This document shows, piece after piece, positions 3,185-40,624 of a stretch of DNA of 64,000 bases. The DNA lies in IMG/VR virus record IMGVR_UViG_3300043470_000815; one strand, given 5' to 3'. Source of the DNA: a virus. Made by a program: the position numbers and the translations under genes. The number at the start of each line of letters is the position of its first letter. Position 1 is the stretch's first letter. Under the pieces are notes generated by a model. The model was not told the DNA's origin, made no database searches, and saw nothing but the letters and a program-made list of their open reading frames with translations.

Positions 3185-3229
3185 TATTTTATTCTTTTTA
3201 AAATTAAAAAATTTGGGTGGATGGGATTT

Positions 3230-4471
3230 TTACAATTTAACCAATTTTGGTAAATTCAACGTTATTGGTTTTTTATCATAAGCATCTAAGATACTTAATA
3301 ATCCTTCTTCCATTTTTGATAAACTGAAATTATCCTTGGTATATTTCGGATGTTTGCGGGATTTTTCTAAATATTTATCATAATATTCATACACATTATT
3401 CAATGTTTGACCAGCAAATTGATAATTGACGGTGAACCATTCCGAACCTTTAATTAACCATCGGTTGGCAGCCGAATCGTGTATTTTTGTCATCGAACCG
3501 GGCAATAATACAGCACCATGTTCTTTACTTAAAAAATCTAAATGTCCCGAATAATTACTTGCAATAACAGGCTTACCAGTGGTTGTAAATTCCAACAACG
3601 GAATCCCGAATCCTTCCGCGTGTGTTAAACTAACCATTGCCTTTATTTTTGGGTGATTATACAAAGCGTTCATTTCTTCATCACTTAAATCACCGTTCAA
3701 TAAATAAACATTTGGTAATGATCCACCAACCGTTTCCTGAATATAACGAATTTTTTCAATAATTTCATATTGTTCAACTTCACTAAATCCAGCACTGTTC
3801 ACTTTTAAAACTAAAGCAGGTCTATTTTTTACACCTTTACGTTTAAAAGTTTCAAAGAATAGTTGAATAGTCGCACCAATATTTTTACGATCTTCGCCAA
3901 TTGCACCCGCCAACCAAGTACCACAAACCAAAAAACAAAAATCTTCTTTGATCGCAGATAATTGTTTAAACGCAATTACATTGTTTTTATTGAAAATTTC
4001 TGTATCTACCCCTTCAAACAAAACTTTAATTGGAACTTTACATTTAATAACTTCTATTGTTTGGTTGGTATTTCGGTCTTTCTTTTCGATTTCAGTTTCT
4101 TCTAAAACTTTTTTCGTAAATTCCGATGGAACAATGACCAAATCCATTTTATTCGCACCTTCGATAAATTCCATACTGCAAACCGAACTTTCAGTTACAG
4201 CCGAAATTCCGATAGATACCTTTCCAAATCGTTGAAATTCGTTTGGAATACCAATTTGAATTGAAATATCGGGTTGTGATGTTACATTTCCGATATATTT
4301 GGCATATTTTTCTTTATTTGAAATTTGGGGGGTAGTTCCCCACCGGGTGGGATTGATCGTAATATCAAATTTATCCGTATGATTCAATAAAGAATCTACA
4401 ATTAATCGCGAATGTTGCCCGTAACCGCTTCTCGAAAAAATGGGCGAAGTAACAAAAATACTTTTTTTCAT
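3230..4471 (-). CDS. glycosyltransferase family 4 (RfaB-like)
   Basis: SRSGYGQHSR and HAEGFGIPLLEFTTTGKPVIASNYSGHLDF (EX7E). Confidence 0.9.
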   Translation of the reverse strand: MKKSIFVTSPIFSRSGYGQHSRLIVDSLLNHTDKFDITINPTRWGTTPQISNKEKYAKYIGNVTSQPDISIQIGIPNEFQRFGKVSIGISAVTESSVCSMEFIEGANKMDLVIVPSEFTKKVLEETEIEKKDRNTNQTIEVIKCKVPIKVLFEGVDTEIFNKNNVIAFKQLSAIKEDFCFLVCGTWLAGAIGEDRKNIGATIQLFFETFKRKGVKNRPALVLKVNSAGFSEVEQYEIIEKIRYIQETVGGSLPNVYLLNGDLSDEEMNALYNHPKIKAMVSLTHAEGFGIPLLEFTTTGKPVIASNYSGHLDFLSKEHGAVLLPGSMTKIHDSAANRWLIKGSEWFTVNYQFAGQTLNNVYEYYDKYLEKSRKHPKYTKDNFSLSKMEEGLLSILDAYDKKPITLNLPKLVKL

Positions 4472-5898
4472 TATAATAATCCTATATCGGTTTTAGGTGC
4501 TGGTTTAGTAATTTGTGTAATGGTAAATTTAGACTTTGGTTGAAACTTAGAAAACATTTCATTTACCGAATCTATAAATTTTTCACGCATAACATCCTGA
4601 TTCATAAAAGTATTCATATAATTTCTCCCCGCCAATCCACATACATTTCGTTCTTCTTTAGACTTTTGATAAACTTCCAGCAAATTATTTGCTAAATCTT
4701 CGGCATCAACAACATAATCAAAAATATACGGTGTTGGAATCGAACCCTGCAATTGTCTTGCACGTGGAATCATTGGTAACACCCATTTTCCGTATATATT
4801 ACAAGTTCCATTACTGTTTGACGGTTGTTGGTTGGTTGGTATCCAATATTGACCTGTTTCACCATCAATAATTCCCATTTGATCTTGTAAACCACCATGA
4901 ACAGGTGCAATTATCATAGTTTCAGCCATTAATGATTCGGCTGTTGATAATCCAAAACCTTCCGCCGAGGACATACTGACCGTTACATCTGCTAAATTAT
5001 AAAAATAATTCATTACTTGAACAGGTAATACTTCTTCATTGAAAATTACTTTGTAATTTGGACAAATATGTTTCTTAACAGCCATTAAATCCGTTCCATT
5101 TTGGTCAAGAATATGGGTTTTCATCAATAAGCAACATTTACTTGCTTGGTCGGGTGGTAACTCGTCGCAAAATTTCTTAAATCCCAAAATGACATCGGCT
5201 GGTTGTTTTCGCCTGATATTTCGACTATTCCAAAACACTACAAAATCAACATTGTGACGGCTTTTAAAATCTTGCCGCATTGCCGCAAAATCCAAATCGG
5301 TATCGGGTATTTTAAAGAATTTTGTATTATTTATTCCGTGTGGAACATAAGTACAAATTGTCTGTTCGCCTGTGATAACCTTATGAATAATATCGGTTTG
5401 TTTATTGATAGCCATTAATAAATCACACGATTTATAAAAAGGTTCATTCCAAAACGGTATTAGTTCACTATCCCAAATTGACCAATAAATGATTGGAATT
5501 TTATATTCCGCCCGAATTGTATGCTCATGTGGCCAAAATTCCATAAAATGTCTTGGATCGGTGAATAACATAACAGCGTCAGGTTTTTCAATTTCAAGTA
5601 CTTTGAAAAATCCATCATACGAAAAATAACCATTATGTTTATATTGTTTAACATATAAATCGGTCTTTCCCGTTTCTTTTTCTATCTGCTCGCTAATATC
5701 CACCGCCCTACCATGTTCGGGATGTGACAGTGCGGCTGCTAATTGAACCCAATCAAACTCCCCACACGTTTCATAAATTAACTCCTTGGCCATTGTTCCA
5801 ACGCCTGATGGAGAAAATATGTCATCGGTTAATATAAAAATCTTCTTTTTATTGCGATTTACGTTAATTTTTCGCAATTTCGGTAATTGTATCTGCAT
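4471..5898 (-). CDS. glycosyltransferase family 4 (RfaB-like)
   Basis: SGVGTMAKE, SRNIRRK and SSAEGFGLSTAESL (EX7E). Confidence 0.9.
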   Translation of the reverse strand: MQIQLPKLRKINVNRNKKKIFILTDDIFSPSGVGTMAKELIYETCGEFDWVQLAAALSHPEHGRAVDISEQIEKETGKTDLYVKQYKHNGYFSYDGFFKVLEIEKPDAVMLFTDPRHFMEFWPHEHTIRAEYKIPIIYWSIWDSELIPFWNEPFYKSCDLLMAINKQTDIIHKVITGEQTICTYVPHGINNTKFFKIPDTDLDFAAMRQDFKSRHNVDFVVFWNSRNIRRKQPADVILGFKKFCDELPPDQASKCCLLMKTHILDQNGTDLMAVKKHICPNYKVIFNEEVLPVQVMNYFYNLADVTVSMSSAEGFGLSTAESLMAETMIIAPVHGGLQDQMGIIDGETGQYWIPTNQQPSNSNGTCNIYGKWVLPMIPRARQLQGSIPTPYIFDYVVDAEDLANNLLEVYQKSKEERNVCGLAGRNYMNTFMNQDVMREKFIDSVNEMFSKFQPKSKFTITQITKPAPKTDIGLL

Positions 5899-9136: not shown

Positions 9137-10072
9137 TTAAGTCTTAATAATATTTAAAATGTTTACAATAGTTGCCATTGCGTTAATTTCTTTATCAATT
9201 ACAAGTCCATCCCTGTATTGTCCTTCCGCCAAAGCCAAAATAACCAATCCCTTTTTTCCGTCTCCACAATATTTATCTAATTCATCGAATAAATAACGAT
9301 ACAAATCATTAAAATATTTAATTTTAGAATCTGCAATAGTTTGTCGAACGTCGTTGAATATTTGTTTAACTGTTGCTTTACTATTGAAAATTTCGACTAT
9401 TTTATTACAATAATCATTTACAATAATATTTTGTGTCGATAAAACTAATTCATTATTTAGTGAATTATCCTGTAAATAATTTATAATAGATCGTTGGTCG
9501 GGATAAAATTCTGTTATTACGACTGCTAAATCTTTTGTTGAAAATTTGACATTTTCCGATTCCAAAATAAATTTCATCCGTTTGGCAATTTCTATTTTGG
9601 GTGGACTTTCAATTTGAAATTGGGTGCAACGTGACCGTATGGCTGGATGAATGCGTTCTACATGGTTACACGTGAATATAAACCGTGATGATTTAGAAAA
9701 TGACTCAATGATGTTACGCAAAGATGCTTGGGCATTTATCGTAAGGTAATCTGACTCGTCACATATTACAATTTTCCAACGTTTAAATCCAATAGTGCTT
9801 ACAAATGATGTTATTTTTTCACGTACCATGTCCACATTGTTTTCACTGGAAGCATTGATATATAATACATCGGCATCTAATTTATTTGCAATTAGTTTAG
9901 CAATTGTGGTTTTACCAGTACCGGGTTTTTCGGAAAATAACAACAAATGATTGATTTCACCAACCTCCAGCCAATGTTCAATTTTCCGTTTAAATTCGTC
10001 ATCGGATACATATTCAGATAACTCGGTTGGGCGATATTTTTCAGCCCACCAACTGTTCTTTAAATTTGACAT
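9137..10072 (-). CDS. clamp loader AAA+ subunit (RFC small subunit / T4 gp44-like)
   Basis: WAEKYRP, GTGKTT, DESD, SRC motifs. Confidence 0.95.
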   Translation of the reverse strand: MSNLKNSWWAEKYRPTELSEYVSDDEFKRKIEHWLEVGEINHLLLFSEKPGTGKTTIAKLIANKLDADVLYINASSENNVDMVREKITSFVSTIGFKRWKIVICDESDYLTINAQASLRNIIESFSKSSRFIFTCNHVERIHPAIRSRCTQFQIESPPKIEIAKRMKFILESENVKFSTKDLAVVITEFYPDQRSIINYLQDNSLNNELVLSTQNIIVNDYCNKIVEIFNSKATVKQIFNDVRQTIADSKIKYFNDLYRYLFDELDKYCGDGKKGLVILALAEGQYRDGLVIDKEINAMATIVNILNIIKT

Positions 10073-10998
10073 AATTTGTTTATAAATTTTTGTGGTTCTG
10101 AATAATATGTTTTATACGAATTTTCAAAATCTATGAATGTTTGAAGTTCGTAAATCCAATAATCTTCCATAATTCCTTTAATGTGAAACTTTATTTTGTC
10201 TGAAAGTTTGAACATCATTGCGGGTCTTTTCCATTTTTTACTTTTTTGTATTTTTTCAAAATCAGTAAAAAGAACACTATACCTATAACGTCCCGGCAAC
10301 CTAGTAAACATACCTTTGTTTGGAACAAACGGAACACAACCTGCTTGTAATGCTAATGTATAAAGTTCAGTATTAATGTTCATATCTAAAGATGCACAAA
10401 AAACGATCTTACTTTCAGACATATATCTAAATAAATCAAATGAAGATAAATTTGGAATTGTCGATAAATCTATAAAATCATATTGTGGAAAATCTACCTT
10501 AAACTGTTCAACGAAAAAATATTGTTGCTTTTTATCCTGCGAATCATCAATAAATAATATTTGATCTTTTCGTTGTACGTTTAATTTTGGAAATCGAATA
10601 AGTGGTAATTTTAAATTAACAACATTTGGTCGATCACCATCAATCCATTTCGTATAAATCGCACCTGAATAATTTTTTCGTAGTTTTTTTCGTCGTACCC
10701 ATTTTTGCATATTATCATCAACAAACGTTATATATTTAGCCTTAACAGAAAAATCATTGAAATTTTCCCGATCTTCGACAATTATATAATCGGTTGGTTG
10801 TAATTTACCCATAACTTCATATTCATACAAAGTCATTACTTGTCTCTTCAAATATAATGCGTTGGAATTAGATATGGTAGATGGATTAATGTTAATAACT
10901 TCTACGTTTTCCAACTCCAACACACTATCCCAATAATCATATTTATACTTCATATAAATTGTATCCTTTTTATACGAAGGTAGTATGAAAATTCGCAT
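10060..10998 (-). CDS. divergent glycosyltransferase-like protein
   Basis: SKIVF...E.Y..ALQAGCVPFVP resembles a GT-B C-terminal motif but is degenerate. Confidence 0.4.
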   Translation of the reverse strand: MRIFILPSYKKDTIYMKYKYDYWDSVLELENVEVININPSTISNSNALYLKRQVMTLYEYEVMGKLQPTDYIIVEDRENFNDFSVKAKYITFVDDNMQKWVRRKKLRKNYSGAIYTKWIDGDRPNVVNLKLPLIRFPKLNVQRKDQILFIDDSQDKKQQYFFVEQFKVDFPQYDFIDLSTIPNLSSFDLFRYMSESKIVFCASLDMNINTELYTLALQAGCVPFVPNKGMFTRLPGRYRYSVLFTDFEKIQKSKKWKRPAMMFKLSDKIKFHIKGIMEDYWIYELQTFIDFENSYKTYYSEPQKFINKLCQI

Positions 10999-12983: not shown

Positions 12984-13305
12984 ATATATTTCCTACTTTA
13001 TTTACAATTTGATTGAATTTTGGATGAAATCTATAATGTGATTCACTTGAAAGTTTTTCAAAGCCTCCTACCTGTGTAACACGTGCAAGAAATATTTGTT
13101 CTTTTCGGCTTTTTGTTCCGCTTCCATGTGTACCAAATGGGACATTAACAATATCATTTTCATAAATTTCCTGACCATTTATTTCACCAATATATAAGTC
13201 GTATTTTAGGTCGGGCGGAAATTCATTTGAAATATCTAAGATCGGATAACATCGTTTATAGTTAGATTCCACCAATTTCCAACATCTAAATTTTACATTT
13301 TTCAT
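12967..13305 (-). CDS. YopX family protein
   Basis: VKFRCW, GQEIYENDIV, VGNIYE. Confidence 0.7.
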   Translation of the reverse strand: MKNVKFRCWKLVESNYKRCYPILDISNEFPPDLKYDLYIGEINGQEIYENDIVNVPFGTHGSGTKSRKEQIFLARVTQVGGFEKLSSESHYRFHPKFNQIVNKVGNIYETII

Positions 13306-13309
13306 ACTA

Positions 13310-13360
13310 ACAAGATATGTATTTTTTGTGAACTAAACAAGTGTATTAACATTTTATTCA
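13310..13360 (-). promoter_or_regulatory. promoter ACTTG-N20-TATCTTGT with proximal TTAAC half-site
   Basis: CAAGATA at 13311-17, CAAGT at 13338-42, TTAAC at 13346-50. Confidence 0.65.
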
Positions 13361-13392
13361 CATTATTAATGAGATCAAATTGAAAATTTGAT

Positions 13393-13848
13393 TTACCAAT
13401 CAAACGTGAACCCAACTATTTTATTTTCAATACAATGGTCAAAAATAATATCAATTATTTCATCTTTAGTTTTAAAGATTTTATCATCGGTATCATTCGA
13501 TTCACAAATAGGATATAGGGTGGTTGGATCATTTACTAATTCTTCATCGTAATTATCGTCAAAATAATCTTCTAAAAAATCCACAAATGTAACCTTTCTA
13601 TATCGTTCAAATGTATCTGTTATTATATTTCTAACAGTCGAAAAAGTTTTACCAGTTTTTTCATGTACCGATAATTCCAAAGTTTTTTCATATTCTTTAA
13701 ATGGATTACTGTAATACGGATCAAATTGAAATAGTCGTTCTTTTTGTAAAATCCTAAGTTTTTCTAACTTATCAATTGTTGGATCGCTGATAATTTCATT
13801 AATCCGTTCTTTTTGTAATTCCGCGATTTGTTGTTTTATATTATTCAT
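13393..13848 (-). CDS. hypothetical protein
   Basis: 151 aa ORF. Confidence 0.6.
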   Translation of the reverse strand: MNNIKQQIAELQKERINEIISDPTIDKLEKLRILQKERLFQFDPYYSNPFKEYEKTLELSVHEKTGKTFSTVRNIITDTFERYRKVTFVDFLEDYFDDNYDEELVNDPTTLYPICESNDTDDKIFKTKDEIIDIIFDHCIENKIVGFTFDW

Positions 13849-13988
13849 TTTATTTTAAAATTCCTAAAAAAGTTAATTATGTCTTTAATTGCCCACCAAC
13901 CAGTTTTGAATAACCAGTATAACACAAATAAGATAAGTGTTAATCTCATAACGGTAAATTGGCCTAATTCAGTATAAGTGTAATTCAT
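13845..13988 (-). CDS. small membrane protein (47 aa, not in ORF track)
   Basis: MNYTYTELGQFTVMRLTLILFVLYWLFKTGWWAIKD...; ATGA overlap with next gene. Confidence 0.5.
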   Translation of the reverse strand: MNYTYTELGQFTVMRLTLILFVLYWLFKTGWWAIKDIINFFRNFKIK

Positions 13989-13989
13989 A

Positions 13990-14043
13990 CAAGTAATATC
14001 GGTTAAATTTTTGAATTTTACAAGTGTATTAACATATAGTTAA
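13990..14043 (-). promoter_or_regulatory. promoter with perfect TTAAC-N5-GTTAA palindrome and ACTTG box
   Basis: TTAACATATAGTTAA at 14029-43, CAAGT at 14021-25; -7 box imperfect. Confidence 0.55.
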
Positions 14044-14238
14044 CTTATAATCGCTATCATCATCGGTTGATAGGTTTAATCTAGTTTTACATTTTGGGCA
14101 TTTGAACTCGTGTGGGAGTTCATCTTGTTTCCACCAAATATTTGTATCCGAAACGAATGAATCACAGTTGGGACAAACGAAATCAAATGTTCCCAAATCA
14201 CAACTGTAATCATCGCAATGTCTAATAAATTCTGCCAT
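14029..14238 (-). CDS. zinc-finger hypothetical protein
   Basis: CPNC...CPKC. Confidence 0.6.
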   Translation of the reverse strand: MAEFIRHCDDYSCDLGTFDFVCPNCDSFVSDTNIWWKQDELPHEFKCPKCKTRLNLSTDDDSDYKLTIC

Positions 14239-14244
14239 ATAATT

Positions 14245-14442
14245 TTATTCAAAATGTTTAATATATTCAGTCATATCTAATTTTAATGTTGACCGATATA
14301 ATCTTGTATAAAATTCACTTTCCGTAATCAGTTCTTCGTAAAAAGAATATTGATAATTGGTTCTATCCCACCCATCAGGGTCTAAAATTTTATGGTTAGT
14401 ATTTTTTAACCATTCATCGGAGGTTTTTAATATATTTTCCAT
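14245..14442 (-). CDS. hypothetical protein
   Basis: 65 aa ORF; ILDPDGWDR motif. Confidence 0.6.
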   Translation of the reverse strand: MENILKTSDEWLKNTNHKILDPDGWDRTNYQYSFYEELITESEFYTRLYRSTLKLDMTEYIKHFE

Positions 14443-14443
14443 T

Positions 14444-17400
14444 CTAAAAAAAGTTATTTTGTTCTGTTAATTGTACTTTATCCCACCCCAAGTCATACCA
14501 AATAGTATCTAACTTAGATATTAATGAAGTTTCAAATACTTTATCTTTGTCCATATATTGTTCTACGAATTTTACAATTCTTGGATCATCTTCACCTTGT
14601 CCTTTTAATGCAATTGTTTCAAATCCATACGAATTTTGCTTGACATACGCATATAAAATTTTATCACCATCAACAATAGGCGAAACATCATCAATATTGA
14701 AAAGTGTTAATAATTGATTATAGTTTTGAGCAGATTTTACGTGAATCGGTGTTCCTTTTTGATTATATTCAAACTTGGAAATTTCCTTAACGCTGCTTGG
14801 TAACATTATATCAAAAATTGAATTTGTCTTATAAATTCGCTTGAAATCGCGTACTGTTTGATTTAATTCATCAACGTCTTTGTCATGTAAAATATCAACA
14901 ATAAGTTCTTTCATTATTTTGCGGAATGATTTCGGGAACGATGAACGCACCACATCAAAACCTTTAATGTCCACTTTTTCTTTAACTTCACCATTGACAA
15001 TTTCAACTGATAATTGTGCGTATCGTTTTTTGGCTTGTCCCCAAAATGCACGTTTTGACACTTTTTCTTCGTTGAACTTTAACCGATTATTGTTAGAATG
15101 AAAACAATGGGTAGTGAACCATTTAATTGATTTATTTATAAATTGTGTAACGTCGTTAGATACTTTTTCGGCTGCTAAAATACATTCGATGTCGGTTAAA
15201 CTATCTATCTTTTCGATTAAGGGTTTAGCATCAAGATAGCACGAATTATGTACCAAAATATTATTAGCGAAAAACGTGTGTGGTGTATCAACCATCCCAA
15301 CATCATACATTTCAGATACTTCAAATGGAAGTTCTTCAATTTCAACTATTTCATCAAGAAATTTGTCAAGGTTTGAATTAAACGCTATAATTGTATCACC
15401 CACCCAAAGATTCTTACTTAAAGTTTTGGTCACGTTTCCATCCAAATCACTAAGCATGATGGAATGATCTTCACTGACAATTATTTCTTTTCCCGATTTA
15501 GTTTTTATTTTAAATCGTTTTTTACGAACATTATGTTTTTCTATATATTTGACAAAACCGTATTTAATATCTTTAGTTGTTTCATCATAATACGGGAATT
15601 TACAGTTTTCAGGGAATGTAAATTCTTTACCCAATGGATCAATATATAACGACGTATTAGAATATTCATCAAATAGCGTTTGAATAGATTTATATTCACC
15701 ATTTTCTAATCTTACAACCGATTCACCTGCCACCGAATCCGAATCTTGATATACAACACAATTTGTTTTATATTGATCTTTTAGTTTATTTTTATAATAC
15801 AAATTGATTATAAAGTCTGAAAACTTAATCACACTTTGACCCGACAAAGTAACACTTTCCCCCGACAACCTAGAATAATACCTAAAGGATGGTAATAACA
15901 AAACACCATAAAGACTGTTCAGCAAGATTTTGGTTATCAACTGTTTACGATCTAAATCAGCGTATTCAATTGAACCTTCTTTGTAGTCTTTCATTCGATT
16001 TTTATACAAAATACGTTCGTTAAACCACTCCTCCAGTATTTCGGGAATAATACCTTTGGTTCGTGTATCAAAAATTACACCAGCCGATGATATAGACGCA
16101 TCATATTTTCCAACAAAATCAATAAATTCAGTTTTATTTAATTTTAATATGTTATCGGTTGGTTGTCCGTATTTTATTTCATTAACTTCTAATATTGCGT
16201 CGTCTGCTAAATATCCAAAATTTTCAATTGATTTTAAATCATTAGACAGTTTGGATGGAAAATGTAGTTGATCCCAATTATTAATTACACCGATCTGCAT
16301 TTCTATACTATTATTCTGTGTAATGATTAGATTCGGATATAAACTTTGTAAGTCAATCGAATAAACCCAACTATGTTTTCCTACCTTGGGTGGTTTGACG
16401 AATGCTCCTTGAGCCTTTCCCGAACTAACAATTATTTTATTTTTTAATGACTTTTTCTGTTTTTTTAACAGATATGAACCAATTTCTTCATATACCTGTT
16501 CGATAAAATCAAAAATATAAATTTTCGCTTTATCTTTTATCGTTTTTAAAATTTTATCAACTGAAATGAACGCACTTTTAACTTTCACAAAAACTTCATC
16601 AGTTCGCATTTCGTAATCTGTCATTTTATTCAGATTACTAATCGTCACTAAACCTTTACGCTTGCATCGGGTAGCAATTGCACCATCCAAGTAACGGCTG
16701 GAAAATTGATAATCATCATAGGGTACGTGTCCTTTGTGGCATATACCGCGAGCAATGGCGATTAAATCCATTTTCTTATCCAATGCAACCATCAACTCCA
16801 CGTCGGTAACGTTGTACGCTATAAAGGCATTTATATCGTTTTTATAAAGTTCATCAAGTGTTCCTGTATATTGGACTTTTCCACGCCCAAGTTCCTTTTT
16901 GGCAATTGAATCCAACGAATAAGAACTTTCTTCATTGTATGTGAATTTTTTATACAATTGAAGATAATCCATCTGCGAAACACCTGCGATTTTAATAAAT
17001 GTTTCTTTTCCAACCTGCCTATTTTCGACTATCCCGATTGGACTTAATTTTTTAGCATAAGTCCATCCAAGCACGTTTTTTAACCGATTAACCAAATACG
17101 GAATATCAAAATAGTCACCATTGTAAGCAGAAACAATCGTTGGTTTAATTTTATTCCAGCGTGAAAGAAAATCCATTAACAGTTTTTCTTCTGTTTGGAA
17201 TGTAACTACATTAACGTCGCTATTGGTCTTTATTTTGTGTTCTTTATCCAGCAGTAGAACATAATACTTTTCATCGAAATAATAGGCAATAGATGTGATT
17301 GTATTCAAAGCCTCGGTTGGTGTTGAATATCGTTTACCCTTTTCAATTTCAATGTCAAAAAATAAAATATTATGTTGGGTGGAAGGTTCGTCACTTTCGT

Positions 17401-17656
17401 AATAACGATCAATTAAAACACGTGTTGCAATTGGAATGTCATGTTCAAATATTTGACCTTCTTTTTCCCGTTGTTTATCCCAATCGTAAACTTTTGTAAC
17501 ATTCCGACCTGTTAGGGTTTTATATGTTCCTTCGTCGTCTAATTGATATGCGTATGGTTCATATCTAAACTTTTCATATAAAGATTCACCATGTAGTCCA
17601 TCTGACCACAAATGACACATATTATCTTTACGATTAAAAAAGAAGTTTTTGTACAT
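14444..17656 (-). CDS. polB: family B DNA polymerase (T4 gp43-like) containing an intein
   Basis: exonuclease FFDIE, YNGDYFDIPY, YNVTD; motif A DLQSLYP; motif B KILLNSLYG; motif C YQDSD-[intein]-SCY; KKRYA. Confidence 0.95.
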   Translation of the reverse strand: MYKNFFFNRKDNMCHLWSDGLHGESLYEKFRYEPYAYQLDDEGTYKTLTGRNVTKVYDWDKQREKEGQIFEHDIPIATRVLIDRYYESDEPSTQHNILFFDIEIEKGKRYSTPTEALNTITSIAYYFDEKYYVLLLDKEHKIKTNSDVNVVTFQTEEKLLMDFLSRWNKIKPTIVSAYNGDYFDIPYLVNRLKNVLGWTYAKKLSPIGIVENRQVGKETFIKIAGVSQMDYLQLYKKFTYNEESSYSLDSIAKKELGRGKVQYTGTLDELYKNDINAFIAYNVTDVELMVALDKKMDLIAIARGICHKGHVPYDDYQFSSRYLDGAIATRCKRKGLVTISNLNKMTDYEMRTDEVFVKVKSAFISVDKILKTIKDKAKIYIFDFIEQVYEEIGSYLLKKQKKSLKNKIIVSSGKAQGAFVKPPKVGKHSWVYSIDLQSLYPNLIITQNNSIEMQIGVINNWDQLHFPSKLSNDLKSIENFGYLADDAILEVNEIKYGQPTDNILKLNKTEFIDFVGKYDASISSAGVIFDTRTKGIIPEILEEWFNERILYKNRMKDYKEGSIEYADLDRKQLITKILLNSLYGVLLLPSFRYYSRLSGESVTLSGQSVIKFSDFIINLYYKNKLKDQYKTNCVVYQDSDSVAGESVVRLENGEYKSIQTLFDEYSNTSLYIDPLGKEFTFPENCKFPYYDETTKDIKYGFVKYIEKHNVRKKRFKIKTKSGKEIIVSEDHSIMLSDLDGNVTKTLSKNLWVGDTIIAFNSNLDKFLDEIVEIEELPFEVSEMYDVGMVDTPHTFFANNILVHNSCYLDAKPLIEKIDSLTDIECILAAEKVSNDVTQFINKSIKWFTTHCFHSNNNRLKFNEEKVSKRAFWGQAKKRYAQLSVEIVNGEVKEKVDIKGFDVVRSSFPKSFRKIMKELIVDILHDKDVDELNQTVRDFKRIYKTNSIFDIMLPSSVKEISKFEYNQKGTPIHVKSAQNYNQLLTLFNIDDVSPIVDGDKILYAYVKQNSYGFETIALKGQGEDDPRIVKFVEQYMDKDKVFETSLISKLDTIWYDLGWDKVQLTEQNNFF
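15245..15736 (-). mobile_element. mini-intein (164 aa, no homing endonuclease) in PolB motif C
   Basis: starts SVAGES, block B SEDHS, ends MYDVG...FFANNILVHN, +1 Ser. Confidence 0.92.
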
Positions 17657-17986: not shown

Positions 17987-18670
17987 TTAAAAAAATTTAT
18001 TATTTATTGTATTTTTAACCCGATCATTCCCGATTTTAAAATATTCATCGGACAATTCACAACTTACACAATTTCGATTTAAACTTCTTGCAGCCAACCA
18101 AGTCGAAAAAGAACCACCAAACGGATCAAATATTAATTCATTTTCACTTGAAATAGACATTATTAATTTTTGTAATAGTCCAATTGGCTTTTCGTTTGGA
18201 TGAATTAGTTTATCAGCACTAACACGATTTACACGGATTAGGGTGGTTGGGCGTTTGTCTTTAAATTCGTAACGTCCTTTTGTGGCATAAATAATTGACT
18301 CGTGTTGGGGAGCAAATTCACCTTTTAAATCGCCCATCCCGTGTATTCCTTTATCCCAAATTATTTGCGATTTTACAGTAAATCCAGCGTCGATTATTTC
18401 ATTTAGAAATTCATTTTGAACGTCCCAACGGTAGAAACATAACAAACGTCCTCCGTCTTTCATTTTTGGAAATAATGGTTTAATCCAGTCAGTAAATGGA
18501 CGTTCATCGTTTAGGATTTTAGGCTTTTGTACACCCGTGGCCGATGGTCGGCCACTTTGGAAGTCGATACCATACGGCGGATCAGTTAAACAAACATCAA
18601 TAGATTCATTTTCAAATTGATTGATTACGTTTAGACAATCGTCGTGGATTATTTTGGAAATTATATCCAT
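17987..18670 (-). CDS. DNA amino-methyltransferase (N6A/N4C, beta class)
   Basis: TDPPYG ... HPNEKP ... DPFGGSFST. Confidence 0.92.
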   Translation of the reverse strand: MDIISKIIHDDCLNVINQFENESIDVCLTDPPYGIDFQSGRPSATGVQKPKILNDERPFTDWIKPLFPKMKDGGRLLCFYRWDVQNEFLNEIIDAGFTVKSQIIWDKGIHGMGDLKGEFAPQHESIIYATKGRYEFKDKRPTTLIRVNRVSADKLIHPNEKPIGLLQKLIMSISSENELIFDPFGGSFSTWLAARSLNRNCVSCELSDEYFKIGNDRVKNTINNKFF

Positions 18671-19419
18671 TATTTATCAATAACAACTATACATGATTCA
18701 ATCATTGTTCCACTTTCTTTAAACGCACCTTTTTGAATCGGATAAATTGACGCATCAATATTTTCCAACCACCCACGAAATATAGTTTCCTTTTTATTTG
18801 AAGATTGTTTCCAATGTGTTGACATTATAGAAACCAACCTACCACCCGTATTTAACGATTCGTACATTTTATAAACGTGGTCAATGTCTTGATTTTTACT
18901 AAATGGTGGATTTGCAATGATTCGGTCAAATAATGCAGAACCTTCAATCCATTCCACCGATAAAAAATTATTACCAATATGCTGTGCGGTTGGAATTTTT
19001 TCTAAAAATGTTCGGTTAATATCCATTAATTCAAAATAATCAACGTTCAAGGTAGGAAATTTTCGATTAATTGCATGTATAATCGCTCCTTGTCCGGCGG
19101 ATGGTTCTAATATCATTTGTCCTGCATTTTCGTCAATTTCCGCTAATTCGACTAAGTAATCAGCAATTTCAGATGGTGTTGCAAAGAATTGAAATTCTTT
19201 TTTAAGATTACGTTTTTCACCCGATGCGATTTGTTCTAAAAGGTCGGATGGATCACTTTTAAAAACAAAGCCTTGAATTTTACCACTTTTCCACTCCCCG
19301 CCAATTAATTCCAATGATTTTTTGACTTCTGTATAAACTTTTCTGTCCAATTGGGTGGGAGGTAAATATACAATATTATTTTTAACTGTACAATTTTTTA
19401 ATGTTTCTAATGCTGTCAT
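18670..19419 (-). CDS. SAM-dependent DNA adenine methyltransferase-like (gamma order)
   Basis: QFFATP, LEPSAGQG, IIANPPF. Confidence 0.85.
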   Translation of the reverse strand: MTALETLKNCTVKNNIVYLPPTQLDRKVYTEVKKSLELIGGEWKSGKIQGFVFKSDPSDLLEQIASGEKRNLKKEFQFFATPSEIADYLVELAEIDENAGQMILEPSAGQGAIIHAINRKFPTLNVDYFELMDINRTFLEKIPTAQHIGNNFLSVEWIEGSALFDRIIANPPFSKNQDIDHVYKMYESLNTGGRLVSIMSTHWKQSSNKKETIFRGWLENIDASIYPIQKGAFKESGTMIESCIVVIDK

Positions 19420-19436
19420 TTATTTTTTTTTAAATT

Positions 19437-20546
19437 TTAATAAAATGTGTTAATATGTAAAAACGGTGAAATCCGTTTATTTGCAATTTCTATTGATTCG
19501 GGATTTAATTCAATTCCGATAAATTCTCTACCAAGTTTCAAAGCAACCACCCCCGTTGTTCCACTGCCCATGAACGGGTCAAAAATTAAGGATGGTTTAA
19601 TTTCATCGGTTAAACACTTACATGATTTTTTCCACCCAACCGATCTTTGAATTGAAATATTATCAGTTTTAAAAACGGAACTATCAGATACATTATTGGT
19701 ATTTGCTATTTTTCGATCACTTCGTGAATTAGATTCAATTATTTGTTTTTCTAATATCCGAACCCAAGGTTTTCCACATTCAACACAACAACCTTTTTCA
19801 GAACTACCAGTTTTTATACACGGTTCGACTAATTTTTCAGGATAACCAGCAATATGTTCACCAGCCGCCCCGGGTTGTAAATTTATCCGCCAAACATTAC
19901 GCATGTTAACTACTCCGTCATCGAATTTACCCAAATGGTCTGTTTTTTCCTTAACACTAAATTGATCGAAAAAGTAATTTTCATTTTTAGTAAACATGAA
20001 AACATATTCAAAACTTTTTGAAAATCTATCCGTACACGATTCAGGCATAACACTACCTTCACGGACTTGTCCACTCGTTGCCTTTGCCCAAATAATTGTA
20101 TCACGGTGATACCAACCAGCCTCGGACAAAGCAATTGCTAGGCGGTGTGGAACATTCATTAATTCTTTGCGTTTAATGCCGTTTGGCTTATATCCCGAAT
20201 TTTTTATAATACCTTTTTCGCTATTATTCGTAACTTGAATGGATGAAGTATTACGATTTGATACTGTACCATCGGGATTTCGCCCTTTTCCTGATCCCGA
20301 ATAAGAATCAGCGATATTTAAAAAGAAAACTCCAGTGGGTTTTAATACACGACGGACATCTTCAAAAACTTCGACTAGATTGTTAATATAGGCGGTTAAT
20401 GTCGTTTCATTTCCAATTTCCCGTGCATCGTCCAAGTAGTTTCTAAGTCCGAAATAGGGTGGACTTGTAACGCAACAATCGACCGAATTATCAGCAAGTT
20501 TTTTTATTTCCGTCTTGACATCACCTAAATGTATTATATTTTTCAT
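19437..20546 (-). CDS. DNA N4-cytosine methyltransferase (beta class)
   Basis: [20 protein letters not shown]; CVEC...CKC insertion; start trimmed to MKNIIHLGD at 20546. Confidence 0.9.
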
Positions 20547-20547
20547 A

Positions 20548-21000
20548 TTAACGCCCACTACTCCCAAACCCACCAGTACCGCGAATAGTTTCAGAAAGTT
20601 CAGTAACTTCTTCAAATTCGATTTGGGGGAAAGGTAAAATGATTAGTTGAGCAATGCGTTCGCCTACTTCATATATATCATAATCAAAATTTAATTCATT
20701 TTGTAGATGATAAACATATTTAAACCGAGCCTTTATCTCCCCTCGAAATTTTGAATCAATTATCCCTACATGATTGGTAAGTAATTGATTTACATTACTT
20801 TGTGAACTTCGTGGAAATAATAAACCTACATACCCATCAGGTATTTCGATTGATAAACCAGTACCATATTCATAATAACCACCACCATCAGAATATTTCC
20901 AAGTTCGTGATATAGCAGTTAAATCCATTCCAGCATCGCCTATATGGGCATAAGTGGGAATAACAGCGTCAGGGTGTAATTTTTTTATTTTGATTTTCAT
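20548..21000 (-). CDS. dut: trimeric dUTPase
   Basis: [33 protein letters not shown]. Confidence 0.97.
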
Positions 21001-25217: not shown

Positions 25218-25268
25218 CAAAGATAAGTCAAATATTTGGATTACACAACCTTATTAACATTTAGTTAA
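25218..25268 (-). promoter_or_regulatory. promoter GTTG-N20-TATCTTTG with perfect TTAAC-N5-GTTAA palindrome
   Basis: CAAAGATA at 25218-25, CAAC at 25246-49, TTAACATTTAGTTAA at 25254-68. Confidence 0.7.
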
Positions 25269-25822
25269 CGAGCAATCCACCCACTGTATCTTTTACGCCA
25301 CACAATTGGACTGATTTTATTTCCACCCAAAGCCCACAAACCTAATTTATTTTTACGTGCGGTACGGTGAAGATCGTTATAAAGTTTAAATTCAGACTTT
25401 GGTTGATTCGGTTCATTTCTTGACCACGCATTACCATTTACCAATTGATAAACAGATAAATCAACACTATCACGCGTATAAACTTTACAGACCATCCTAT
25501 CAAATTGGTCGGTGTATATTGGAACAACTTTTAATGTGTCTTTTCGTACTAATAACCGTAAAAATTCAGCAGATTCTTTATTGTAAGGTTGTGGTTTTGT
25601 AACGTATAAAGATTGGTGTTCAGGTGCATCAATTCCGTATAACCTTAATCGTTGGATAGAATCACTTCCAAAGAATTTAAAAGACGGTGAATCACCATCG
25701 TAAGCACCGACCCCAATGACATAAAAAGCACCGGGTTCTAATAATGTTTTTACAACTGGTTTGGTAGTTGTACAAGATGTTGCAAATAATATTGCAGTAA
25801 GATAAAATAATAAGTTTTTCAT
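25265..25822 (-). CDS. thermonuclease (SNase family) with lipoprotein signal peptide
   Basis: MKNLLFYLTAILFATS-C; YDGDS, RLYGIDAPE, DQFDR, QLVNGNAW, ARKNKLGLW. Confidence 0.9.
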   Translation of the reverse strand: MKNLLFYLTAILFATSCTTTKPVVKTLLEPGAFYVIGVGAYDGDSPSFKFFGSDSIQRLRLYGIDAPEHQSLYVTKPQPYNKESAEFLRLLVRKDTLKVVPIYTDQFDRMVCKVYTRDSVDLSVYQLVNGNAWSRNEPNQPKSEFKLYNDLHRTARKNKLGLWALGGNKISPIVWRKRYSGWIAR

Positions 25823-25828
25823 TAATTT

Positions 25829-26734
25829 TTAAGTATTTTTAATAAACAATTCAGCAGGGTTTAGTTTAAATTGTAACATTTTGGCCGTATCTCGTCCAGC
25901 GTCCCCACCCTTCCGTTGTACTGTTATTCGACCAATTTTAAAGTTTCCTTGTGATGTTGTTGTTACGTCGCCCTGACTAAAATGATTCATAGCGACATTC
26001 ATTGGTTCTAACAACCATTTTACATCATCATTTACATTCAACGCTACCAATATCCATTCAGCCGCGAATTTACCGCGACCTTTCATAATATCCGATATAA
26101 TTAAAAATTTATTTTCCCGAAACCAATCCAACACGTGATTAAATTCTAATTCATCAGTAAACATTCGACGTTCATCTTTAGGATTTTCAATGGTTGGTGG
26201 AAGTTCACCAGTATAATGCTTGAGGGTGGTTGTGACATTTTCAGGAATATCCCACATTTGTTTGTACGTGTCAACCCACCTTTTATCAACTTGATTAAAA
26301 CCTTTCGGATTACTGACCAATTTAACTTGTAAATTTTGAGCATCAATTAAGTTTTTTAATTTAATGGTTACTTGTACCTGAACATCGGTTTTAAATCCAT
26401 GTAAAGTTTCCGCCGTCACATATTCAATTTCGTTTAAATCGTAACCCATTTGTGATAACCACCCAACCACGTCCGTATCATTTTGCCAATTGATGAATTT
26501 TTCAACTACTAATTTTTCATTTAAAAACCCATCCTTTGCGGTTTTTGATCCTTTATTGACAATTGAATTACAAATGGTTGGTTGATTATTGTATTCAATA
26601 ACTGGTAAAATTGTGGATTTAAGTCTTTTCCATTCTACCTTGTCTAATTCATAATTACCTGTTAATTCGGGATGAAATTCCCAAAACATTCCACTATTTA
26701 AGACGGAATTATAATCTTGTTCTAGTTTGTCCAT
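25829..26734 (-). CDS. type II restriction endonuclease, R.HinP1I-like (GCGC family)
   Basis: GSKTAKDGF.NE, GFKTDVQVQV, QVKLVSN.KGFNQVDK.W, GRGKFAAEWILV, TVQRKGGD.GR.TA.MLQFK match R.HinP1I as I recall it. Confidence 0.85.
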   Translation of the reverse strand: MDKLEQDYNSVLNSGMFWEFHPELTGNYELDKVEWKRLKSTILPVIEYNNQPTICNSIVNKGSKTAKDGFLNEKLVVEKFINWQNDTDVVGWLSQMGYDLNEIEYVTAETLHGFKTDVQVQVTIKLKNLIDAQNLQVKLVSNPKGFNQVDKRWVDTYKQMWDIPENVTTTLKHYTGELPPTIENPKDERRMFTDELEFNHVLDWFRENKFLIISDIMKGRGKFAAEWILVALNVNDDVKWLLEPMNVAMNHFSQGDVTTTSQGNFKIGRITVQRKGGDAGRDTAKMLQFKLNPAELFIKNT

Positions 26735-27054
26735 TTAGATAAAATTTCAGTTTTTAATTTTTCAAATTCGATATAATCTGCTTTATCCGTTGATAAACAT
26801 TCAATACGTGTTGATTCACGAACGGGACAAACAATGTGCAACCAACCATGATTCTTTAAAAATGATAATGATTCATAAGTTTCATTAATAGTTTCATTGA
26901 ATATATCATTGGGAATTTCACGAACATCTAAATATACAATCAAAACTGGAGTTGGGTGGGTGGATGGAACAAATATTGTTTTATTATCAACCGTTGTTGA
27001 TAATTTTTCAAATGGTGCGTTCACATTAAACGGATTTTTATTAAAGTCTATCAT
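26722..27054 (-). CDS. hypothetical protein
   Basis: 110 aa ORF between MTase and REase. Confidence 0.55.
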   Translation of the reverse strand: MIDFNKNPFNVNAPFEKLSTTVDNKTIFVPSTHPTPVLIVYLDVREIPNDIFNETINETYESLSFLKNHGWLHIVCPVRESTRIECLSTDKADYIEFEKLKTEILSKWTN

Positions 27055-27060
27055 TTAATT

Positions 27061-27855
27061 TTAAAAAAAGTTATTTGTTGTATTTACTGTTATTTGTGTG
27101 TGCTGTTTTATACGTTCGTTAATAATATCATAATATTTTTCTTCTTTTTCCATTAAGATATAATTCCGTTTGGTGTTTAAACAAGCAATTCCCGTCGTTC
27201 CTGAACCAGCACAATTATCCAAAACCACATCACCTTCATTGGTGTAAGTTTTAATTAGATATTCAAATAATGCAACTGGTTTTTGGGTTGGGTGTAATCT
27301 ATGATGTGAATTTACACCGTTGAATTTTTTTACCGTTTTCGGGTAACTCATATCCACATCTTCGGGAATATATTGAATTTTCTTAATTCCATTTTGCTGC
27401 TCATTTATTCCCGATTCGGTAGTAAATTTATATTTCATCCGTGACTTACTTTTATCAGACATATCACGTTCTTCTTTTATAGGATTATAAGTACATTGAT
27501 TTTTATAAAAAACCAAAACATTTTCGTGATTTCTAAGCGGTTGCTTTTTAACTAACGCAAACCCACTGGTCATATTTTTACTCCAAACCCATTCATATTT
27601 AAACATCTTTGGATTACTCATTACCAACGCACTTGTAAACGGTTGGATGGAAGTTAGTACAATAGCACCATTATCCTTTATAATCCTATTATATTGTTCC
27701 CATAATTTATCAAACGGAATAATCGTATCCCATGAACAAGCAGTCGATCCGTAAGGTAAATCACACAAAATCATGTCTATTGATTTATCGGGAATTAATG
27801 GCATACCAACCTCCCCCAAACAATCACAATTTAGTACTGTATTTACATACTCCAT
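27061..27855 (-). CDS. DNA amino-methyltransferase (N6A/N4C, beta class)
   Basis: LCDLPYG, HPTQKP, LDNCAGSGTTG. Confidence 0.92.
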   Translation of the reverse strand: MEYVNTVLNCDCLGEVGMPLIPDKSIDMILCDLPYGSTACSWDTIIPFDKLWEQYNRIIKDNGAIVLTSIQPFTSALVMSNPKMFKYEWVWSKNMTSGFALVKKQPLRNHENVLVFYKNQCTYNPIKEERDMSDKSKSRMKYKFTTESGINEQQNGIKKIQYIPEDVDMSYPKTVKKFNGVNSHHRLHPTQKPVALFEYLIKTYTNEGDVVLDNCAGSGTTGIACLNTKRNYILMEKEEKYYDIINERIKQHTQITVNTTNNFF

Positions 27856-28022
27856 GATTCGTTCATTAATTTTTGTATTTCGGTAATTCCTTCCAAGATT
27901 TTACTGAAAGGTTCATCTAATCGTTCGGGTGAAAGATGATAGATGTGTCCATAATCTTGTAACCCTTCCAAGAAATCATAAATTTCCTGTATTTCGTTAG
28001 TTTTTATATTTTTAATATCCAT
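27843..28022 (-). CDS. small hypothetical protein (59 aa, not in ORF track)
   Basis: MDIKNIKTNEIQEIYDFLEGLQDYG...; fills the gap with overlaps. Confidence 0.5.
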   Translation of the reverse strand: MDIKNIKTNEIQEIYDFLEGLQDYGHIYHLSPERLDEPFSKILEGITEIQKLMNESWSM

Positions 28023-28023
28023 T

Positions 28024-28299
28024 TTATATTTTGGTTTTTAATTGATCCATTAAAGTAGTTCCTTCCAACATATTAGTATTAGAATAATATTCTTTTAAAA
28101 ATTTATCCATTGGATAGACTTCGTTGACAGTTTTTTGTTCAAATGATGCACCATCCGCAAACATATCAATTTGTTCTTTAGTGTAATTTTCAACATTTTC
28201 GTGCCATTCTTCAATATATTCGTCAATTTCAGTCCAATTTAAATAGACGTATCTTGAAGGTATTTGAAATTCACTTTGAAATATTTTTTTAATATCCAT
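28024..28299 (-). CDS. hypothetical protein, paralog of 28674-28997
   Basis: F.IP...W.EN.ENYT.EQI.MFAD.ASF.QK.V..VY..DKFL.E.Y shared. Confidence 0.65.
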   Translation of the reverse strand: MDIKKIFQSEFQIPSRYVYLNWTEIDEYIEEWHENVENYTKEQIDMFADGASFEQKTVNEVYPMDKFLKEYYSNTNMLEGTTLMDQLKTKI

Positions 28300-28312: not shown

Positions 28313-28690
28313 TTAAACGCTAATACTTATCAATTCACAATTATCATCAATAGTATTACTAATAATTGCAAATAATGTTTTTAAAATATATTCGTTATCG
28401 AAATTTTCTACAAATAAAACTGAATCTTTTTTCTTATTTGCTAACTTATTACAATATTCAATAAATTCAGTATTATTATCACTTGAATGTGCAAGAAATT
28501 TATCAAAAATCAAAAAAAACCAATCCTGTACATCTTTTCCACCAATGGACGGTTTACCGTGCCGACATAAAATTTCAACCGCGAATTTGTACTGACCGGG
28601 TACAATTGATAAATCGGAATAAACCCAAGCCGTCATAATGGGTTCAATTTTTATGGTATGAATTATACCATCTTTAGTTATTTTTTTCAT
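28313..28690 (-). CDS. hypothetical protein, possible degenerate QueD/T-fold
   Basis: weak pattern GQYKFAVEI...FDK...H..D...EN...E.I...LF; catalytic His residues not evident. Confidence 0.3.
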   Translation of the reverse strand: MKKITKDGIIHTIKIEPIMTAWVYSDLSIVPGQYKFAVEILCRHGKPSIGGKDVQDWFFLIFDKFLAHSSDNNTEFIEYCNKLANKKKDSVLFVENFDNEYILKTLFAIISNTIDDNCELISISV

Positions 28691-39414: not shown

Positions 39415-40104
39415 TTATTTTAAATTTTTATTTACTAAAACAATTTTATCGGGATCATCAACTATTCCAAGTTTTAAAGTTTTTGCCGAATCCCTAAATT
39501 GTTGGGGTGGTGTTTTGAACCATGAATCATTGGTTGAAAAATAAAATGGTTTATCTTTAGTACTCATATATTTTTCTAATTTTTCCGATGGTTTAACAGT
39601 CCACATATAAACTGGACGACTGCCATGAAAATATCCATATATATGTATAGTATCCTTGGATGGTGGTTGACCATGTGTACTTACATTATGCGTAGGTGTG
39701 ACATAATCATTACCTTCCACCGCGTTTATTTTATTCATTTTTTCGATAAAATATGCGTCATGTACAACCCGCCACTTACCATCTAAATATGGTTTTATTC
39801 GACGTGCAACAATATTTGCCTGAACATAATGAATTGTTTCATGGAACACCACTGGTCTTAAAAATTTATCATCATCTACAAAATCTTTATTTATTTTTAA
39901 AACGGGATTAACAATATGACCAGTACGTGGTTGATATACAAACAATCCAGCCTTAGTTGGCATACTTGTAATTGAAAACTTAGGAATACCCCATTCTTGT
40001 ATATCAGAATAATATTCGGGAAAGTATTTTTGCATACATTCCTTGAAAAAATATTCTAATTTTGAAGTAGATGTAACTTCATTTAAGATTGTTTTTAATT
40101 TCAT
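39415..40104 (-). CDS. SprT-like zinc metalloprotease with MKLKTILNE leader
   Basis: VFHETIH...HDAYF; start reassigned to 40104. Confidence 0.75.
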   Translation of the reverse strand: MKLKTILNEVTSTSKLEYFFKECMQKYFPEYYSDIQEWGIPKFSITSMPTKAGLFVYQPRTGHIVNPVLKINKDFVDDDKFLRPVVFHETIHYVQANIVARRIKPYLDGKWRVVHDAYFIEKMNKINAVEGNDYVTPTHNVSTHGQPPSKDTIHIYGYFHGSRPVYMWTVKPSEKLEKYMSTKDKPFYFSTNDSWFKTPPQQFRDSAKTLKLGIVDDPDKIVLVNKNLK

Positions 40105-40105
40105 A

Positions 40106-40624
40106 TTACGAATAAATATTTGCATCATTTTCATCCCATGACCCATCATTTTTTACTGATTTGATTTGACTTGGATTAAACGTGACTACCCAATTTCCCC
40201 AAATAAAACCATCATAACCATTTTTTTCTAATAAATCACTAACATCCTCCCAAGGTACACCTTTGGCATCGGGAATAATTTCAAATATTTGTTCTTTTTT
40301 TTCCTTTGCCCATTCTACTGTACCATCCGAATTTGCTATATCACTTTTTATAATAAACGGATTTTTAACAGATAAATAAACTGATAATATTTTACTACCA
40401 TAAGTTTTTGCATCATTTTTATGTTCTGTGAAATAAAAACCTTTTGACAACCATCCCGATCTTTTTTTAGATATGTCAAATTTATCAAAATCTATATTAG
40501 TTCCATGATAATAAATCATTGGTTTACTACCATTGGTTACTTTACTATTCCCAAACCATTTTTTGAAATTAGCGTTTAAATTAGATTCACGCAAAACTTC
40601 ATTTAAGATTTTTTTTAATTTCAT
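40106..40624 (-). CDS. ADP-ribosyltransferase-fold (ART-PolyVal-like) protein with MKLKKILNE leader
   Basis: FKKWFGNSKV, YYHGT, GFYFT, YLSVKNP, YDG, FNPSQIKS. Confidence 0.7.
   Translation of the reverse strand: MKLKKILNEVLRESNLNANFKKWFGNSKVTNGSKPMIYYHGTNIDFDKFDISKKRSGWLSKGFYFTEHKNDAKTYGSKILSVYLSVKNPFIIKSDIANSDGTVEWAKEKKEQIFEIIPDAKGVPWEDVSDLLEKNGYDGFIWGNWVVTFNPSQIKSVKNDGSWDENDANIYS

Follow-up and report, generated by a model that had tools for sequence, protein, structure and literature searches.

We analyzed a 64,000-nucleotide stretch of viral DNA (IMG/VR record IMGVR_UViG_3300043470_000815; the whole stretch is called the window here), which is part of a large T4-like myovirus, and found that it encodes a type IIP restriction endonuclease (REase) of the R.HinP1I family, predicted to cut G^CGC, and that it does not contain a single GCGC site. 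The gene lies on the minus strand at 25829..26734, encodes 301 amino acids (aa) and appears to be solitary. We assign a probability of roughly 0.6 to the combined explanation, in which an active, solitary GCGC nuclease is directed at foreign DNA, and immunity comes from the loss of the site, which the nuclease itself would uphold.

The GCGC count on both strands of the window is 0, relative to 35.1 ± 5.1 expected from dinucleotide shuffles, 30.8 from a second-order Markov model and 40.3 from base composition. Neighboring words are frequent (GCGA 68, GCGT 87, GCGG 61 and CGCG 37), and other CG-containing tetramers occur at near-normal levels (observed/expected 37/40 for CGCG and 179/186 for ACGT, with TCGA near normal too). 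The original prediction, made from the letters of the window, had noticed that GCGC was missing amid plentiful GCGA, GCGT, GCGG and CGCG and had expected about 30-40 sites; the counts (0 vs 31-40) bear this out. The count it had proposed beyond the window also came out at 0, in 90.3 kb of the phage (1..64000 plus a 26.3-kb flank of the same phage), relative to 43 (Markov) or 56 (composition) sites expected.

The absence is shared by the other phage lineages that carry the nuclease gene. Across eight carrier lineages (195 kb), we found 0 GCGC relative to 87.5 (Markov) or 121.6 (composition) expected; 105 kb of this DNA comes from the seven lineages beyond the window phage, and there the count is likewise 0. 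For the six longer of the eight lineages, the chance of finding no GCGC is 1.5e-19 (window phage, 90 kb), 3e-7 (L201), 1.5e-4 (L101), 8e-4 (L005), 1e-3 (L100 with L202) and 1e-2 (L102). In an unbiased scan of every 4-mer and 5-mer, no word other than GCGC was absent from each of the six long carrier loci. In L101, GCGC stands at 0/9 while nothing else is avoided (AGCT 24/24, CCWGG 21/21 and GAATTC 11/10). Loci with zero GCGC comprise 6/6 of the carriers vs 3/47 of the non-carriers (Fisher p = 3.7e-6), where each of the 47 non-carrier loci has a Markov expectation of at least 4 GCGC. Synonymous divergence (dS) between the lineages is saturated, so that, had selection not persisted, GCGC sites would have reappeared repeatedly. 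What these GCGC-free lineages all share is a single factor, the phage's own nuclease.

By its sequence, the window protein is a member of the HinP1I family with intact catalytic and recognition residues. Its open reading frame (ORF) matches PF11463 (R-HINP1I) at 2.3e-81 with 272.7 bits (cut-off 25), residues 96-297 covering profile positions 1-208 of 208, and it matches the R.HinP1I structure (PDB 1YNM) at 4.1e-81, with ORF residues 58-297 aligned to chain residues 3-245. The alignment to HinP1I residues 3-245 delimits the nuclease core as residues 58-301 (25832..26563, minus strand). The motifs K115-T116-D117 and Q136-V137-K138 are present and invariant in an alignment of 20 homologues. Hence, the original prediction that the protein follows R.HinP1I, including a KTD...QVK catalytic core, agrees with both database matches and with both motifs. 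Catalytic residues E73, D117, Q136 and K138, which are invariant in the 20 homologues, align to the HinP1I site, whose PD-(D/E)XK-like residues we take to be E18, D62, Q81 and K83. F146, which is nearly invariant in two alignments (A1 and A2), aligns to HinP1I F91, presumably the intercalating phenylalanine. The base-reading residues Q148, K151 and K275, equivalent to HinP1I Q93, K96 and K223, are also invariant in the 20 homologues, and neither they nor the catalytic residues vary in A1 and A2; HinP1I reads G1 via K96 and the G2:C2 pair via K223 and Q93 (PMC7026639).

Among clade members, the ratio of nonsynonymous to synonymous substitution rates (dN/dS) of the nuclease gene is 0.055-0.15, and dS is saturated (>1.5) between most lineages. 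Hence, the protein is under strong purifying selection. Homology and the genomic footprint together point to a nuclease that is active and GCGC-specific.

Avoidance of GCGC could also have been driven by the host: a host restriction-modification (R-M) system of the HhaI/HinP1I type would have removed GCGC, and the captured nuclease would merely be tolerated, not maintaining the loss. Many other words are missing from the window. AGCT is absent (0 vs 67 by the Markov model and 186 by composition), as are CCWGG (31 expected by the Markov model), GGWCC (33), CCAGA/TCTGG (33), GAATTC (28), TTCGAA (22), GGAACC (20), ATCGAT (17), CTGAAG (16), ATGCAT, GATATC and TGATCA, the Markov expectations of these zero-count sites beside AGCT spanning 12-33; CCCAG (1/30) and CATATG (1/15) are nearly gone. 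We recognized no nuclease in the window for AGCT or the other avoided sites, and the loss of AGCT may be due to a host AluI-type R-M system or to an unrecognized phage nuclease. Since many sites are absent without matching phage enzymes, host restriction pressure acts on this genome too. The HinP1I family is moreover very common in bacteria (4316 proteins), so GCGC pressure should be frequent.

The comparison with a non-carrier bears on both sides of this question. G001 is a 122-kb non-carrier that is collinear with the window at about 48% aa identity, and it holds 28 GCGC vs 22 expected (Markov). It has no AGCT (0 vs 212-360 expected) without a known AGCT nuclease, and no CCWGG (0/99). No nuclease gene was found in G001 between its 125-aa gene and its SNase gene, nor elsewhere in its 122 kb, with positive controls validating the search; the gap between the 125-aa homologue (56608-56964) and the SNase gene is about 257 bp. 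Four further candidate non-carriers (G002-G005) were uninformative, their records being only 6-9% complete. Equal depletion in relatives without the gene, which had been named as an outcome that would speak against the original prediction, is thus not seen in G001. Another phage, G006 (L205-L210), is a complete 119-kb genome related to the window only through NrdJ; relative to composition it has 0/75 CGCG, 0/75 CCGG, 0/347 TCGA and 1/75 GCGC, with AGCT normal.

Host-driven avoidance as the whole explanation appears unlikely to us. GCGC alone is missing from every carrier lineage, whereas the sets of other avoided sites turn over between related phages and L101 avoids nothing else; the collinear non-carrier keeps GCGC at its Markov expectation; and strong purifying selection over saturated divergence is unexpected for a passenger gene. 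As the start of the avoidance, however, host restriction is compatible with an active nuclease that maintains the loss. The original prediction had listed avoidance driven only by host R-M systems as its alternative; with so many other sites avoided, and with GCGC scarce in G006 and zero in three non-carrier loci, this alternative is stronger than was supposed, at least for the origin of the depletion.

REases of this family from bacteria come with a methylase. As a bacterial-type comparator we used 80 metagenome loci (L121-L200), 42 of which have enough flank to be judged, and found an adjacent methylase in all 42: a C5 methylase in 25/42 and an N6_N4 methylase with an SPPY motif in 17/42. 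The SPPY-type partner has ~262 aa, is always directly upstream of the REase gene and co-oriented with it, and presumably makes N4-methylcytosine (m4C) at GCGC; two examples (L137:9208-9996 and L185:5605-6387) are 83% identical to each other. Hence, the earlier view that the natural partner is a C5 methylase is right for the first group of loci and wrong for the second.

No C5 methylase was detected in the window, either by Pfam on the ORFs scanned or, for every six-frame ORF of at least 90 aa, by a C5-methylase hidden Markov model (HMM) derived from three Pfam-confirmed members. With the HMM, the 90 kb of the phage, the other carrier loci and G001 were likewise all negative. The absence of a C5 methylase that had been claimed for the window therefore extends past it, where a search had been proposed. 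Motif-based detection of C5 methylases was dropped since it falsely flagged the REase itself and an intein-containing NrdJ, and the HMM was used instead.

The window has four methylase-like genes (17987-20615 and 27061-27855), whose motif IV reads DLPY in MT1, SPPY in MT2, NPPF in MT3 and DPPY in MT4, so the phage has both several methylases and avoided sites. MT1, the neighbor of the nuclease gene (27061-27855), matches PF01555 (N6_N4_Mtase), as its earlier assignment to the N6A/N4C type had it. Since 17 of the 42 bacterial loci have an N6_N4 partner, dismissing MT1 by class alone would be invalid, so it was compared directly. Its identity to the bacterial SPPY partner is 25%, its motif is DLPY and it lies in a lineage-specific insertion; it was rejected as the cognate partner. 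MT2 (392 aa, 19437..20615, minus strand; PF01555), with its SPPY motif of the N4-cytosine type, is the only candidate cytosine methylase in the window; it is 22% identical to the bacterial GCGC partner and very different in the central region. A methylase beside the family-B polymerase (PolB) gene in L202 is also of the SPPY type and has only generic motifs in common with MT2. No N6_N4 methylase was found in the 122 kb of G001.

The R-M system could thus be complete and merely separated, with MT2, the L202 enzyme or a gene in the remaining 100+ kb as the GCGC methylase, and with the loss of sites as the usual under-representation under R-M, as in chloroviruses and marseilleviruses. Such split systems are documented (PMC3488263), SPPY-type methylases pair with the family in bacteria and occur in both the window and L202, complete-pair bacterial loci can have zero GCGC in 20 kb, and the larger part of the genome lies outside the DNA read. 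We nonetheless hold this to be rather improbable. The phage N6_N4 methylases reach no more than 22-25% identity with the bacterial partner, which is conserved (the two examples being 83% alike), and they differ from it in size and central region; MT2 and the L202 enzyme are alike only in generic motifs, and the clade as a whole has no methylase in common. A GCGC methylase would find nothing to modify in the 90 kb of phage DNA, which has no sites, and it is the host that would gain protection. Within the DNA read, we consider it quite likely that the nuclease is solitary.

Homologues on other viral contigs differ from the clade in this respect: they adjoin a Pfam-confirmed C5 methylase, and two of these loci (L104 and L105) keep 43-44 GCGC. 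A further homologue, with 31% identity, lies beside a Pfam-confirmed C5 methylase at L106:3285-5127 (IMGVR GVMAG-M-3300025705-7; 23% GC, labeled as a giant-virus metagenome-assembled genome), an arrangement suggestive of a complete R-M pair in what is putatively a nucleocytoviricot genome.

A third possibility is that the protein is not a double-strand REase in vivo but a nickase, a DNA-binding protein or a repair/recombination protein, or that it is silenced by its N-terminal fusion, with the loss of GCGC otherwise caused. HinP1I is of the monomer type and cuts one strand per binding event (PMC7026639), the genes around it serve repair and recombination, a solitary REase may lack activity when its methylase is missing, e.g. 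PaeR7I (PMC3488263), and the window copy has an unusual fusion at its N-terminus. This reading seems very unlikely to us, as the catalytic and base-reading residues are all invariant, the clade-wide and complete removal of exactly the predicted target is what is expected from damaging activity there, and most clade members do not have the fusion.

The fusion precedes the nuclease core with an extension of 57 aa in the window copy. It consists of an N-terminal module of ~35 aa with the motif SGMFWEFHPELTG (26630..26734, minus strand; defined by tblastn and alignments) and a linker of variable length (26564..26629, minus strand; from the alignment of the window protein with P0001-P0003). By tblastn, the SGMFWEFHPELTG module (residues 1-35) is matched in 13 unrelated viral contigs, and in other phages, of 24-50% GC, it is a free-standing mini-ORF of 41-56 aa (L006:9986-10111, L014:9989-10159 and L016:~10000-10105). 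Fusion of the module to the nuclease is confined to the window, L099 and P0001-P0003, and the L005/P0001 branch has a 4-aa deletion within the motif. The linker differs in length and sequence among the window protein and P0001-P0003, and a Met directly before the nuclease core is kept in P0002 and P0003, which suggests a former start codon and a fusion by read-through of two adjacent genes. The module has no Pfam or PHROG family, and its Atlas structural neighbors are viral hypothetical proteins only.

The closest homologues of the nuclease (75-86% identity) are on phage contigs with the order FEN, DnaB, NrdJ, small ORFs, nuclease and SNase/Pyr_excise/dUTPase, and this syntenic position is shared by the window, L005, L099/L201, L100/L202, L101 and L102; a 6.3-kb contig, L203, has nothing in common beyond YopX and Endonuc_Holl downstream. 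A quick maximum-likelihood tree with 121 members of the family places the window protein together with P0001-P0014 in a single group (SH-aLRT, a likelihood-ratio branch test, 89), which holds every copy with verified phage context. The family is otherwise very rare in viruses. We found no nuclease homologue in 50,697 deposited phage records by tblastn, and only 5 HinP1I-family loci among the 2.9 million contigs of IMG/VR. A metagenome scan with a clade-specific alignment added nothing to the clade; it returned only ordinary homologues at 59-67% identity, almost all beside a methylase. The phage itself recurs across lake-water metagenomes of several studies.

The window encodes a family-B polymerase with an intein, clamp-loader subunits, DnaB, FEN, NrdJ, dUTPase, a T4 endonuclease V-like protein, tail sheath and a gp19-like tail tube in addition to the four methylase-like genes, with the gp23, portal and terminase genes directly past the window end. 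Repair and recombination genes near the nuclease comprise Pyr_excise, two Holliday-junction resolvase-like genes and FEN.

Directly downstream of the nuclease gene lies an SNase-like gene (25265..25822, minus strand; PF00565, 6.5e-14). The two are also adjacent in L101 and L102, and the G001 SNase homologue is 37% identical. The N-terminus of the SNase-like protein is hydrophobic and, by eye, resembles a signal peptide or lipoprotein (…LFATSC…), which suggests that the product may be exported. Upstream, a conserved 125-aa protein (28313..28690, minus strand) is the ancestral neighbor of the nuclease, with 28-52% identity by blastp to the upstream ORFs of L099, L100 and L102; the upstream ORF of L101 is tied to this family only via L102. 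In L099-L102, the 125-aa homologue abuts the nuclease gene with no insert. In the window and L005 only, a lineage-specific insert (26722..28299, minus strand) lies between them and holds a 91-aa paralogue, a 59-aa ORF, MT1 and orf110 (26722-27054). As a candidate for a dedicated inhibitor of the nuclease, the 125-aa protein was rejected, since the non-carrier G001 has a homologue too.

Other genes of the clade and of the window are recorded here as observations. In L203, a Mom-family gene (3065-3679; Pfam) is directly upstream of the nuclease. By Pfam, L100 has PTPS and GTP cyclohydrolase I genes (13278-14433), and L101 has PTPS at its contig end (20374-20735); we take these to resemble 7-deazaguanine pathway genes. 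Inteins are frequent in the clade: in PolB of the window (14444-17656), in NrdJ with LAGLIDADG of L099 (5699-9127) and L102 (1298-4153), and in a 613-aa gene of L101 (12757-14598). Three glycosyltransferase genes of the window (one GT2 and two GT1) are kept in G001, and an ART-PolyVal ADP-ribosyltransferase and an SprT-like gene are among the virion genes; these gene regions are at 2098-5898 and 39415-40624 of the window.

We propose that a clade of T4-like lake-water myophages has an active, GCGC-specific HinP1I-family endonuclease that functions with no cognate methylase and would be inherited vertically at one position (NrdJ, small ORFs, nuclease and SNase). The phage DNA would be immune because it has no GCGC, and any new GCGC site would be cut by the phage's own enzyme during infection and so be selected against. 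That the phage is immune for want of the site was the core of the original prediction; the zero count in eight carrier lineages, with GCGC retained by G001, fits it well. Assuming GCGC specificity, self-protection through loss of the site is likely. With no GCGC in the phage's own genome, the enzyme would be left with only non-self DNA as its substrate during infection: the host chromosome and/or co-infecting phages and plasmids. Cleavage of the host chromosome would also feed nucleotides to the neighboring NrdJ and dUTPase functions. We lean slightly toward such an offensive role against host or rival DNA. Salvage of nucleotides from host DNA would fit the place of the gene beside NrdJ, dUTPase and other nucleases and would parallel chloroviruses; exclusion of rivals would parallel marseilleviruses. 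The gene could have arrived together with its methylase in an R-M pair, or have entered a phage that host restriction had earlier depleted of GCGC, with full loss of sites and loss of the methylase to follow; the direction of causation between gene and site loss is one that we infer.

Several points weigh against this explanation. GCGC is at zero in the loci of three of the 47 non-carrier relatives as well, the unrelated G006, which has no nuclease gene, is nearly without GCGC (observed/expected 1/8) amid a general loss of CG palindromes, and at least 13 other restriction sites are avoided by the phage without its encoding the matching enzymes. Since all carriers belong to one clade, the association of the gene with site loss has the phylogenetic weight of a single event. 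Hence, the case rests on loss maintained over saturated divergence and on specificity for GCGC, not on repeated independent gains. The bacterial loci with a complete pair are GCGC-depleted too (pooled observed/expected ratio 0.59, with several 20-kb loci at zero), so loss of the site alone is no proof that a methylase is absent. The SPPY-type MT2 and L202 enzymes may have any specificity, including GCGC, and of this phage 90.3 kb were read; the remaining >100 kb may hold a methylase or GCGC sites. The activity and specificity of the nuclease are read from homology and the genomic footprint, and both degradation of host DNA and early expression of the gene are presumed.

The phage enzyme can be set against several known systems. 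It matches R.HinP1I of Haemophilus influenzae P1 (type IIP, G^CGC; PDB 1YNM and 2FKC) at E 4e-81 over 240 residues with the key residues kept; in contrast to R.HinP1I, the present copy is in a virulent-type T4-like phage, has no methylase, bears the 57-aa N-terminal extension, and the phage's own DNA, as far as read, is without the target. In bacterial HinP1I-family R-M systems, the methylase gene lies directly upstream of the REase gene, the REase genes are 59-67% identical and the carriers are depleted of GCGC, whereas the phage clade has neither the C5 nor the SPPY-type partner and its loss of sites is total.

PacI has an HNH nuclease fold and recognizes a rare 8-bp AT-only site, TTAATTAA. 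In Pseudomonas alcaligenes, it is a solitary REase, and the genome is protected by absence of the site (PMC3488263). The phage system is like PacI in having no methylase and a site-free genome of its own, here across the 90.3 kb of the phage and the 105 kb of seven other lineages. It differs in the nuclease fold, in that the carrier is a phage and not a bacterium, and in that the site is a 4-bp word, expected 40-120 times, that was removed and kept out over long divergence.

Offensive viral R-M systems are known from chloroviruses, which degrade host DNA and recycle its nucleotides, and from marseilleviruses, which exclude competitors, with self-protection by the cognate methylase in both (PMC7253447). 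The REase is virus-encoded here as well; self-protection would rest on sequence composition alone, and an offensive role is presumed. T4 endonucleases II (DenA) and IV (DenB), encoded among nucleotide-metabolism genes, attack host DNA and spare phage DNA; T4 marks self by hydroxymethylcytosine in place of cytosine, and DenA and DenB are of other families and are not type II REases. Solitary REases of phages have been counted, 12 in 831 genomes, but not explained (PMC4176335). In the literature covered, which is incomplete, we met no phage clade described as keeping a 4-bp cutter with no methylase while having completely lost the site of that enzyme.

REases usually are a bacterial defense made safe by a methylase, and this clade seems to be the reverse: the cutting half is kept and the target word is deleted. 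More tentatively, and with somewhat more doubt than confidence, we picture a T4-like freshwater clade that practices methylase-free offensive restriction, in which self is the total lack of a 4-bp word in ~180-kb genomes, enforced by the phage's own enzyme; host and rival DNA would be destroyed early, and the mini-protein, fused in some lineages, would perhaps target or regulate the nuclease. That the HinP1I family pairs with methylases of two unrelated classes (C5 and SPPY-type) is of importance for the annotation of R-M systems, and where all carriers of a nuclease gene lack the same word, that word can serve to predict the specificity of the nuclease from metagenomes. If the enzyme is active, the clade would be a natural case of a genome whose word content is shaped by its own nuclease and not by that of the host, a methylation-free phage counterpart of the offensive R-M systems of chloroviruses and marseilleviruses, and a simple system for how phages degrade host DNA or exclude competitors.

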